From Vulcanimicrobiota bacterium (lineage in GTDB: Bacteria; Vulcanimicrobiota; Vulcanimicrobiia; Vulcanimicrobiales; Vulcanimicrobiaceae), in the NCBI GenBank assembly GCA_963714015.1, contig OY970223.1, positions 2,304,001 to 2,368,000 on the forward strand: DNA of 64,000 nt, given 5' to 3'. Position numbers and translations under genes: made by a program. The notes under the pieces were generated by a model, which saw only the letters and a program-made list of their open reading frames with translations, did not search any database and was not told the origin of the DNA. Positions 13,504 to 51,497 of this stretch are shown in pieces (within the stretch, counting starts at the first letter, position 1; the number at the start of each line of letters is the position of its first letter).

Positions 13504-13535
13504 AAAAAGCCCGCGGTTTAGCCGCGGGCTTTTTT
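13504..13535 (+). terminator. Intrinsic terminator of the rRNA operon
   Basis: AAAAAGCCCGCGG-TTTAG-CCGCGGGCTTTTTT. Confidence 0.92.
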
Positions 13536-25558: not shown

Positions 25559-27203
25559 TTAACCGCGCAGCGCGAGAGCCGCGACGCGCAGCGCGTCGGC
25601 CGGCGCACGCGTAAATTCGAAGTCGCAGAGTGCGCGTCCAATCTCCGCCTGTACGCGGTTCGTAACGAACCACGGCGGCTTGGGAAGCAGCGAAAACTCT
25701 CCGGTGCGCAGACTTCGCGGGAACGGCGCGAACGGAGCGCGCACGACGGTTTTTTCAGTTTTTTCAAGCAAGTACGCGTTGTGCACGACGCCGATGCCGC
25801 TTTGTATGTCGCCGAGTGTGTGTCCGGGATAAGCGCCCCACGGCGCCTCGGTAATGAAGTAGCCGACACCGGTCCAAGCGTTGACGCCGATGCACCCATA
25901 CCGTAACGCCGCGACAGCGGCATCGATCTCCCTCGGGTAGCCGCGAAGCGTCGCCGGATCCGCGATAATGTTTGCGCCGAGCGTGCCGCGAAGAACGTCG
26001 TTTGAAAAGCCCACCGCTCGTGACAGAAACTCCGAAAGATCGCCGTCGAGCTCGAACGCAGGCGAGCACGCCGCAGAATGCCTCCGTCGAAAACGCCGGA
26101 TTGGTGACGTCCGACGCATCGACCTGGACAATCGGGCGCAGGGGCGAGGCCGCCCCCGCAATCGCAATACGGCGTTCGGCGGAGCCGGGATAATACTCCG
26201 GCCGCGGTTCCATGCGCGCGAACACCTGCGCGATCGCATCCAGCAGCGGTTCGCTCTGCTTCCAGCGCTTGGGCAAGATGAGCGTTTGCGCGGCAATGCA
26301 GTTGAACCCGGCGTTGTGCGCTTTCTGCGTTGCGACGTTTTCGGCTTGAAAGCGAATGTCGGCGTCACTCCAATCGCCCGGCACGACAATCGTTGGGCTG
26401 ACATTCCCCAGTTCGCTGGTGATTGGTTTTGCCGAGCCTACGCTCGCGGCGATGCGATCGTGCGTAGTCTCGCTGCCGGTGATGTGAATCTCGTCAACCG
26501 CCGCATGGCTGCACAAATACGCTCCTGCCGCGGCGTCTCCGTACGCGAAGCGCAAAAAGCCGTCATCGGCGAACGTCCGGAATGCGCGCTCCAAGATCGG
26601 TCCCAGGTACGCATTGACCGGGTTCATTTTGAGCATGCAAACGGCGCCGCCGGCGATGAGCTTGTAGAGTACGTCCAGCGGTGCAATGCTCGCGATGTTC
26701 CCCGCTCCCAATACCAGGGCGACGCGTCCCTCGGGCTGCGCCCGGCGGTAAAACGCCCCTGCTTGCGCCTGCGCGAGCTCCGCTGTAACGCCGGGCTGCA
26801 TCCAAACATCGGCCGTTATCCCACTGAGCAATAACCGATCGTACGCGTCGTGCGGAAAGACGCGCACGATGGTTCGGCCGCCGGCGCCGGCGCGCACCGC
26901 CGGCAACTGTGGTTCGCCCGCGACGTCAATCCAGCGGAGCGTGCGACGGTAGCGGTTCAACGCGTACAGCACGGCCCACGGCCCCGATATCCACTCCTCG
27001 CCCGCCGCCGCCGAATTGGGCAGCAGCCCCTTTGCATTGCAAGCCGAGTTCACCCAATCAGCTGCAAGTGCGTGGACGTTGCGCCGCACGTCGTCCAGCA
27101 TCGCGATCTTGCGGCCAATCGCGAGCCGCGCCCATGCGGTCTTTGCCGCCGTCAGCGTTTCGAGATCGCGATCCAACGATTCATACGCGCGCGCGGACTG
27201 CAT
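25559..27203 (-). CDS. Aldehyde dehydrogenase family protein, frameshift near 26055
   Basis: LGAGN, HITGS, SELGNVSP, NAGFNC, EAFCG; second frame ELDGD...LRYG...PWGAYPG...IQSGIG. Confidence 0.88.
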
Positions 27204-27267
27204 GAAAGGCGCTTCTAATGCAACCGGCGCTCCCCTGGCAGGGTACTATCACGGTAGGAGGTCCGGC

Positions 27268-27492
27268 ATGAAACGAAAACGGCGCAAGCCCAAACTCGTG
27301 CCGCGCCTGGGGCCGGCGCAAAATTTACGGCCCGCGGGTGCCCACGAGTCAAGGAAACTCTACAACCGCAAACGACGGCATAAAGCCGCCCTCGAAGACT
27401 ACGTCGAGGACGGCTTTATCGTTTGTTGCGCGGGTCTTCTGCGGGCTAGCAGCGTCAGCAGCGCGAGCACTACGGCGGCCGCGATCATATAG
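27268..27492 (+). CDS. Small basic protein, candidate ArfA/BrfA-like ribosome rescue factor
   Basis: TACTAT (-10) at 27244, AGGAGG SD, Lys/Arg-rich N-terminal half, internal hairpin. Confidence 0.65.
   Translation: MKRKRRKPKLVPRLGPAQNLRPAGAHESRKLYNRKRRHKAALEDYVEDGFIVCCAGLLRASSVSSASTTAAAII
27380..27427 (+). terminator. Terminator-like hairpin inside the small basic ORF
   Basis: ATAAAGCCG-c-CCTCGA, 8-nt loop, TCGAGG-a-CGGCTTTAT, followed by CGTTTGTT. Confidence 0.65.
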
Positions 27493-27917
27493 ACTCGAAT
27501 CGATCCGAACGTGAAGATGCCTGGGCCTATCACCCGGTCCAGCGTGAAGCGCCCCATGCCGCCGAAATCGAGGGCCAGCGCGCCTCCGATCACCATTGCG
27601 GGGAGTTCCCAGCCGCCGTTGCTGCTGAAGAAGCCCTTGTTCAAGTGAACGGTAATGATCGCGACGAGCATCACCAGGATCACCAGGGCCGGTCCCAGCC
27701 CTCCCAGCAGCCCGAGCGCCAGCAAGAGACCGCCGATGAACTCGCCCAAACCTGCGGCGACCGCAAATACGACCCCCGGGTAGAATCCCAGGCTTTCCAT
27801 GAATTTGCCGGTGCCGGAGGGGCCGTAACCTCCGAACCACCCAAAGAGTTTCTGCGCGCCGTGTGCAGCGACGCCCAGGCCGATTATCAGACGTGCAATG
27901 AGGACTGCAGCACTCAT
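27399..27917 (-). CDS. DoxX family membrane protein
   Basis: RLIIG...HGAQKLFGWFGG, GEFIGGLLLALG, GWE. Confidence 0.93.
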   Translation of the reverse strand: MSAAVLIARLIIGLGVAAHGAQKLFGWFGGYGPSGTGKFMESLGFYPGVVFAVAAGLGEFIGGLLLALGLLGGLGPALVILVMLVAIITVHLNKGFFSSNGGWELPAMVIGGALALDFGGMGRFTLDRVIGPGIFTFGSIRVYMIAAAVVLALLTLLARRRPAQQTIKPSST

Positions 27918-28040: not shown

Positions 28041-28262
28041 GTGAGCCGATTCCCCGCCGAGCTCGTCGTAACTTTGACCGACGGCCGTTGCATGACCGAG
28101 TACTTCAACCAAGCCGAGATGGCGCAATTCACGCGAAAGAACATGTTGGATCGGCTGCGGCGCGGTGAACCGCTCGTGGTTTTCGACGGAGAGGCCGTAG
28201 AGCTTCCGGCATCGCGCGTGGCGTCCGTCCAGGTGATCGTCCAAGACCTGCTTACCGTATAA
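28041..28262 (+). CDS. 73-aa hypothetical protein
   Basis: AAGGAG SD before GTG; protein-like composition; fills the gap. Confidence 0.6.
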   Translation: MSRFPAELVVTLTDGRCMTEYFNQAEMAQFTRKNMLDRLRRGEPLVVFDGEAVELPASRVASVQVIVQDLLTV

Positions 28263-51394: not shown

Positions 51395-51497
51395 CCGCTG
51401 GCAGATACGAACCCCTCCGCGTGCGGCCCTTCGGCAATCGCCGCAAATGAAAAGAGAGCCGGCGGCGGCTCTCTTTCTTAGTTCGGATGCGGGCTCG

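Follow-up and report, generated by a model that had tools for sequence, protein, structure and literature searches.

What does a bacterium do with a short, basic gene that appears to carry a transcription terminator inside its own coding region, ahead of the stop codon? The question is raised by a small reading frame in the window, the 64,000-nt stretch of DNA analysed here, whose host is one of the soil bacteria of the uncultured phylum Eremiobacterota (Vulcanimicrobiota). The first-pass annotation of this DNA proposed a candidate ribosome-rescue factor of the ArfA or BrfA kind, made from an mRNA that ends without a stop codon. To our knowledge, few back-up rescue factors are known, namely ArfA, ArfB, ArfT and BrfA. 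The relevant passages of the BrfA paper and of a 2021 review expect more small, lineage-specific factors that are out of reach of sequence searches (PMC6881298; PMC8012679). The present candidate was singled out by gene architecture alone, in a phylum whose searched genomes yielded no ArfA and no ArfB. Our literature search found no paper joining Eremiobacterota and ribosome rescue, and, for further factors whose genes have internal terminators, nothing relevant turned up beyond the 2021 review.

The small gene, its relatives and its neighbours

The frame runs on the plus strand for 74 codons from ATG 27268, with the stop codon TAG at 27490-27492. The features of the locus are as follows.

27244-27249, plus strand: TACTAT, a -10-like promoter hexamer, read from the sequence and promoter-like by inference
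27256-27261, plus strand: Shine-Dalgarno sequence AGGAGG, 6 nt ahead of the start, read from the sequence; GGAGG is at the same position in most relatives
27268-27270, plus strand: start codon ATG, read from the sequence
27268..27423, plus strand: conserved coding core, codons 1-52 (MKRKRRKPK...EDGFIV), from alignment and homologue searches; the expected non-stop product
27380..27419, plus strand: hairpin of 15 bp with one mismatch, from RNA folding and covariation
27415..27427, plus strand: U-rich tract TTTATCGTTTGTT, from the sequence and from T enrichment in relatives
27424..27492, plus strand: non-conserved tail, codons 53-74 and TAG 27490-27492, antisense to doxX, from alignment
27399..27917, minus strand: convergent DoxX-family gene (PF07681, E 8.5e-18), from a Pfam match
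25559..27203, minus strand: divergent aldehyde-dehydrogenase-family gene in two frames, from ORFs, Pfam and the neighbour count

The -10-like box, the Shine-Dalgarno sequence and the start codon can be read directly from the letters as the first-pass annotation described them, and the translation of the 27268 frame is identical to its peptide at every letter. It had also remarked that the ORF list holds this gene solely as the tail of the longer 27016 frame, which is indeed the case. A longer protein starting from the TTG at 27016 is ruled out; in relatives, stops occur a few codons ahead of the conserved Met, and for this reason ATG 27268 is assigned as the start. Codons 1-52 contain 16 K/R and 5 D/E residues. 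A promoter scan of the window made no call at TACTAT. Among the related loci that could be anchored on GGAG, a TAnnnT hexamer is found 7-24 nt upstream of GGAGG in 40 of 43, and in 18 of those 40 the hexamer has a TGn extension. Some members of the family are without a Shine-Dalgarno sequence, namely L058, L071, L075 and L078-L091, which belong to a stop-bearing subfamily considered below, and also L036 and L054. These same members have a TACGCT/TACGGT or TATACT box placed 8-9 nt ahead of the ATG, an arrangement that suggests leaderless mRNAs.

Is this frame a gene at all? A search of clustered public proteins returned 44 homologues besides the query, 46-119 aa in length, and a profile search of 1.84 billion representatives returned 95 at E ≤ 1e-3, all of them between 34 and 131 aa. 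The family consensus reads M-(K/R-rich)-VPRLGPAxNLRPAGAHESKKLYNRKRxKAALRRxxEDGF. In the 44-sequence alignment P12, G15, R21, P22, A23, G24, A25 and R34 are invariant, and the conserved columns end at G49, with none after it. Collection of the locus from related genomes gave 86 loci and 81 distinct sequences, 48 of which have the K-[ATI]-x-L ... x-G-F ending and are referred to here as hairpin-type loci. Within a stretch of 16 codons about the motif, the mean pairwise divergence is 0.14, 0.07 and 0.56 at the first, second and third codon positions, whether it is computed over the 48 hairpin-type loci or over the full set of 81 distinct loci. Divergence so heavily weighted to the third position therefore indicates a translated gene under purifying selection. 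The first-pass annotation had allowed that the ORF might be neither conserved nor translated; given the 44 homologues and this codon pattern, the small basic frame at 27268 is a genuine conserved protein gene.

Among genomes of the phylum that are at least 90% complete, the gene is present in at least 90 of 265, comprising at least 88 of 191 in the family of the window genome and at least one of four in a second family, with none found in the 70 elsewhere; no more than 24 first-look candidates were scored in each genome, and some copies may be missed. Unpublished genomes are included in the tallies of the locus collection and of RF-1-domain genes, ArfA, PF23876 and RqcH, and are excluded from all sequences that are aligned or quoted. 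The window genome itself is a single contig with a marker completeness of only 89.6%.

The window protein matched nothing in Pfam or in NCBIfam at E ≤ 1, and a Pfam search with 58 family members at E ≤ 0.1 gave nothing relevant. An Rfam search of 26900-27800 returned no match at or above the gathering score and one sub-threshold sRNA match. The AlphaFold2 monomer prediction, made with 44 sequences, has a mean pLDDT of 64 and a pTM of 0.20 and contains one low-confidence helix at residues 29-72, a model too poor to serve for a fold search; a prediction of the complex between residues 1-52 and the genome's own RF2, for which a 27-sequence alignment was used, scored 0.00 in two runs without controls and speaks neither for nor against such a complex.

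Upstream, an aldehyde-dehydrogenase-family gene adjoins the small gene in 55 of 85 related loci. The two genes mostly point away from each other across a gap of about 35-100 nt and are convergent in L058, L078 and L079, such that the adjacency survives a change of orientation (loci L004-L099). This gene is a conserved neighbour, and it is not a translation gene. In the window it is split into two overlapping minus-strand frames, 25764..27203 and 25559..26404; the orthologue in a relative of the same genus is one continuous frame of 477+ aa (L032:3-1433), and the split is either a frameshift mutation or an assembly indel error. Downstream, positions 28041-28262 of the plus strand hold a 73-aa ORF (VSRFPAELVVTLTDG...) with AAGGAG upstream of it and no Pfam family. 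In L004 and L033-L035 a relative of this ORF immediately follows the small gene in the same orientation, and in L032 such a relative comes after doxX. DoxX therefore looks inserted between the small gene and the ORF in this genus.

A hairpin and U-rich tract ahead of the stop codon

The first-pass annotation described a 15-bp hairpin with a U-rich tail well before the stop codon. Folding confirms a hairpin at 27380-27419 followed by a tract that extends to 27427. Positions 27380-27388 pair with 27411-27419 and positions 27390-27395 with 27404-27409, which amounts to 15 pairs, one C.A mismatch and an 8-nt loop. The structure occupies codons 38-51, and the stop, codon 75, is found 70 nt past the stem. 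The minimum free energy of the 71-nt segment 27370-27440 is -27.2 kcal/mol (z = -2.84), and 2 of 200 shuffled sequences were as stable; a simple terminator scan of the window did not call this hairpin.

The 12-bp core of the stem is written by the K-A-A-L codons at 27382-27393 and the E-D-G-F codons at 27406-27417. When the 12 nt of K-A-A-L are set against the 12 nt of E-x-G-F, 11-12 of the 12 positions pair in every hairpin-type locus but one (47 of 48); the exception, L077, also pairs, with its register shifted. In the alignment of 47 loci, standard pairs make up 95.6% of cells, and changes on both sides are seen at 7 of the 12 pairs (32 cells). Five measures were compared with 500 shuffles, none of which came as high on any of the five, and a control with slid partners is only 34-57% paired. 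Several of the compensations alter the protein. In one, an Ala codon goes from GCC to GCT while Asp (GAC) becomes Ser (AGC); in others, Val replaces Ala opposite Asp, and Ile-Val replaces Ala-Ala opposite Asp-Asp. It is the RNA structure, rather than the residues, that is kept. By these comparative data the hairpin is a conserved RNA structure, well beyond chance. Moreover, the same hairpin could be read off the printed folds of 17 of 52 additional distinct metagenome sequences, and in a more distant clade (...KAALRKAAFD...) an equivalent stem is formed from the KAAL and AAF codons. The first-pass annotation had suggested that related genomes be searched for conserved codons and a conserved hairpin with a variable tail, and this is the pattern observed: codons 1-50 and the hairpin are kept, and the tail varies in both sequence and length.

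Is the hairpin kept for the benefit of the facing gene? The tail had been described as antisense doxX, and this agrees with the DoxX gene that runs from 27917 to 27399 on the minus strand. The doxX stop codon, TAG at 27399-27401, sits in the hairpin loop, and the hairpin can therefore end both transcripts. Of 85 related loci, just 2 are followed by a DoxX gene, which rules out the explanation that the hairpin is maintained as a doxX terminator.

The tract that follows the stem is also distinctive. Among 47 relatives, T accounts for 0.42 of the 9 nt that follow the Phe codon, for 0.20 and 0.19 of the next 9 and 18 nt, and for 0.11 of the coding core; genome-wide, T is 19.6% and GC is 60.8%. The T-rich tract persists even though the encoded residues vary (FF, FPF, FIV, FAV and others). 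A strict terminator scan of the whole genome, which required a perfect stem of at least 7, a loop of 3-9 and at least 6 T in 9, gave 209 sites, some of them overlapping calls of one hairpin, and in the first megabase it gave 38 sites versus 1 after shuffling. At 143 of the 209 sites, the stop of an ORF of at least 100 codons precedes the stem, which is the ordinary layout, and the host genome employs such terminators at ordinary gene ends. The genome-wide scan also identified perfect hairpins with T-runs on both strands at 13507-13531 and 51453-51474, which are likely bidirectional intrinsic terminators.

Homologues with a stop codon before the hairpin were a further eventuality raised by the first-pass annotation. 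No stop lies before or within the hairpin in any of the 48 hairpin-type loci; all 48 have their in-frame stop 3' of the stem, at 3-927 nt after the Gly codon, with a distance of at least 12 nt in 43 loci and of 6 nt or less in 3. The resulting tails are 0 to 308 codons long and run into antisense genes. Frame 0 meets a stop at a median of 9 codons, compared with 17 and 15 in the other two frames, and these early frame-0 stops could reflect selection limiting read-through products.

Intrinsic terminators of E. coli release RNA approximately 7-9 nt past the stem. If this distance applies here, the terminated RNA would be without a stop codon in at least 45 of the 48 loci, and textbook terminator behaviour places the expected RNA 3' end of the window gene at ~27421-27427. 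We consider it probable that the predominant transcript terminates within the U-tract, before any stop codon, and is hence subject to trans-translation.

Known rescue factors and the rescue systems of the lineage

How does the gene compare with rescue factors already described? BrfA (YqkK) of Bacillus subtilis is presented in the BrfA paper as an RF2-dependent alternative rescue factor, whose gene has 71 codons with a rho-independent terminator inside the ORF; its product of ~62 aa comes from a non-stop mRNA, is kept low by SsrA tagging and lacks 9 poorly conserved C-terminal residues (PMC6881298). The paper also describes a Lys-His motif common to BrfA and ArfA that contacts 16S rRNA, and a strand that extends a sheet of RF2 (PMC6881298). 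The BrfA host is described as having tmRNA and the RQC pathway without ArfB, and the factor as having a narrow family range. Compatibility between species is low for BrfA. For arfA, the review's account gives 72 codons and a stem-loop that leads to termination or RNase III cleavage, with the loss of 17-18 poorly conserved residues (PMC8012679). ArfA and BrfA are characterised by RF2 recruitment, stop-independent peptide release on non-stop ribosomes, accumulation only where trans-translation is missing, and synthetic lethality with ssrA/smpB.

The window gene resembles BrfA in encoding a short basic protein and in having a putative terminator of the rho-independent type, a GC-rich stem of 12-15 bp with a T-rich tract, within the coding region before the stop; it differs in having no detected similarity, in an expected product of ~52 aa rather than ~62 aa, and in its phylum. 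With ArfA (YhdL, PF03889), which is found in E. coli and other beta- and gamma-proteobacteria, it has in common a stem-loop inside the ORF before the stop, a short, basic protein with no fold of its own, and a poorly conserved stretch after the stem-loop, which is dispensable in ArfA and which, in the window family, is conserved only in the clades with acidic ends that are described below. The two differ in that ArfA also relies on RNase III cleavage, whereas the window structure has the look of an intrinsic terminator and nothing more. In the window family the basic residues lie at the N-terminus and in the centre; in both ArfA and BrfA they are C-terminal. ArfT of Francisella tularensis, characterised in the same two sources as a lineage-restricted factor of ~40 aa that acts with release factors, can be set beside the window gene by description only, as very small and lineage-restricted; it differs in that non-stop control is not described for ArfT in the passages that treat it (PMC6881298, PMC8012679).

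The likeness does not extend to the protein sequence. The first-pass annotation saw in KRRHK a reminder of BrfA, and this part of its argument fails: RRHK is not conserved in the family, the window's R37-H38-K39 giving way to Q, I, A or E in most relatives. The Lys-His motif of ArfA and BrfA is likewise not conserved, and the sole nearly invariant His is H26, which follows the invariant A25. The profile comparison that it proposed also returned no support, in that PF03889 had no match in the window protein (E ≤ 1) or in 58 family members (E ≤ 0.1), a profile of 44 members matched 0 PDB chains at E ≤ 10 in a library where ArfA chains were confirmed and the BrfA chain was assumed to be present, and hhalign against E. 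coli ArfA gave a probability of 0.07% with only LYNRK aligned to SYMRK. By protein-language-model features the nearest cluster is DUF7230 (PF23876), with a score of 0.90 and 187 of 256 features. The PF23876 model found no match at the small gene in 41 genomes even at E ≤ 10 and none in 58 members at E ≤ 0.1, and DUF7230 is treated as a look-alike and not as a shown relative. As judged from these comparisons, the window family falls outside the ArfA, BrfA and DUF7230 families, and if it acts like ArfA or BrfA, it would be an independent invention.

Which rescue systems does the lineage already have? A full-length tmRNA (130 bits, Infernal) is found at G000:C1:1637610-1637964 (L021:1501-1855), and SmpB is present in the same genome. 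ARAGORN reported no tmRNA in L021:1501-1855, and the tmRNA may be unusual or error-bearing. The genome has just two RF-1-domain genes, RF1 with a PAT motif and RF2 with an SPF motif, located at G000:C1:2758856-2759188 and 1428740-1429672, and it therefore has no ArfB; nearly all of 40 relatives across the class likewise have two RF-1-domain genes only. A search of 41 genomes gave no ArfA (PF03889) match above the cut-off. The window genome carries an RqcH-like NFACT_N gene, as do 190 of 192 genomes in the family. The lineage is thus like B. subtilis, which is described as having tmRNA, RQC and a small Arf (PMC11633108), with the window gene as the candidate for the last of these. As for the release factor itself, the RF2 frame (L031:985-1920) is open over 356 codons, and its first ATG gives 311 aa. 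A programmed +1 frameshift is usual at the start of prfB, and a frameshift of this type may be present here.

Candidate function, alternatives and the origin of the design

We hypothesize that the locus is a self-contained transcription unit of ~170 nt that comprises the -10-like box, the Shine-Dalgarno sequence, 50 conserved codons and an intrinsic terminator, with the stem of the terminator encoded by the final conserved codons (K-A-A-L / E-x-G-F) and the U-tract by the two or three codons that follow. Since the terminator lies within the last conserved codons, terminated transcripts would end without a stop at the positions given above. Ribosomes would then reach the 3' end, where tmRNA-SmpB would tag the ~52-residue product for degradation, such that the protein would build up only once trans-translation is saturated or has been lost. 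On the model of ArfA and BrfA, the free protein, which is basic and without a predicted fold, may bind ribosomes with an empty mRNA channel and, once bound, may help peptide release, probably through a release factor. We assign a probability of roughly 0.35-0.4 to this full reading, in which a non-stop gene encodes a candidate back-up ribosome-rescue factor; its last step, from a non-stop gene to a rescue factor, is taken because of the analogy together with the absence of ArfA and ArfB.

Relatives outside the hairpin-type loci bear on how this reading is to be weighed. Many family members are without the hairpin and have a normal stop and a conserved acidic C-terminus (...RYNRKRKKRELREELSHEVDLNVD*, ...ETDYNVE*, ...EIVAAEAEEQE*), the acidic ends of the stop-bearing clades including ...SHEVDLNVD*. 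Hairpin and conserved acidic end occur together in P0020, P0025, P0026, P0034 and P0043, as well as in L175, which has a poor U-tract. An acidic end that is kept after the hairpin indicates that the tail is translated and selected in those members. Because some clades have ordinary stops and a conserved C-terminus, the non-stop design is a trait of a subfamily and not of the whole family. On sequence grounds, the stop-less design belongs to a Baltobacteraceae subfamily that includes the window.

What else could such a gene be? All of the architecture evidence would also fit a non-stop, tmRNA-gated gene with another job, such as a stress signal, a ribosome silencing factor, an RNA chaperone or a regulator. 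We regard this as a serious if unlikely alternative. The programmed non-stop design is, in the parts of the BrfA paper and the review that deal with it, known from rescue factors only (PMC6881298, PMC8012679), a short basic peptide without a predicted fold resembles those factors, and no search suggests another function. Nor, on the other side, does the protein have similarity to any rescue factor; its adjacency to an aldehyde-dehydrogenase-family gene is kept when the orientation changes, and the nearly universal RqcH-like gene could already provide the back-up.

A further explanation, which we find distinctly improbable, holds that this is an ordinary small gene whose hairpin stabilises the mRNA, serves in pausing or processing, or terminates only weakly. 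Most messages would then be read through to the stop, and the variable tail would be no more than a tolerated disordered C-terminus. The T-rich tract that is kept after the stem whatever residues are encoded argues against it, as do tails of 0-308 codons that run into antisense genes, read-through at the window gene, which would be antisense to doxX over 500 nt, and the use of the same type of structure to mark ordinary gene ends genome-wide. In its favour are the clades that end at a normal stop after an acidic C-terminus kept by selection or descent, the members with both a hairpin and a conserved end, the poor U-tracts of some members (the GFDNS and KAAL..AAF types), the earlier stops of frame 0 relative to the other frames, and the 3 of 48 loci in which a stop within 6 nt of the stem could lie inside the terminated RNA. 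That the locus encodes no protein, and represents either a small RNA ending in a terminator or an ORF that arose by chance antisense to its neighbours, is scarcely credible. The shortness of the frame, the overlap of its tail with doxX and the lack of any matching family model speak for this view, but third-position divergence is about four to eight times that of the first and second positions, the amino-acid motif is invariant in 81 distinct loci, the Shine-Dalgarno sequence and start are conserved, and no Rfam model matches at its gathering score.

The stop-bearing relatives also suggest how the design may have arisen. The stop-less form is probably derived from a stop-terminated ancestor. 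A joint scenario, which we put forward tentatively and think doubtful as a whole, would make the window family an independently evolved rescue factor of Eremiobacterota, RF-dependent or otherwise acting and self-regulated through its non-stop mRNA, that passed from a stop-terminated gene, by way of a gene with both hairpin and acidic end, to a stop-less gene whose tail has decayed. A family with both stop-less and stop-bearing forms constitutes a natural experiment on the origin of trans-translation control. In the metagenome locus L145 the tail ending in LKEEG*, which is common to P0018, P0023 and P0038, folds after the first hairpin into a second stem (GCCCT.../AGGGC) just before the TAA, and its apparent protein conservation may again be that of an RNA structure.
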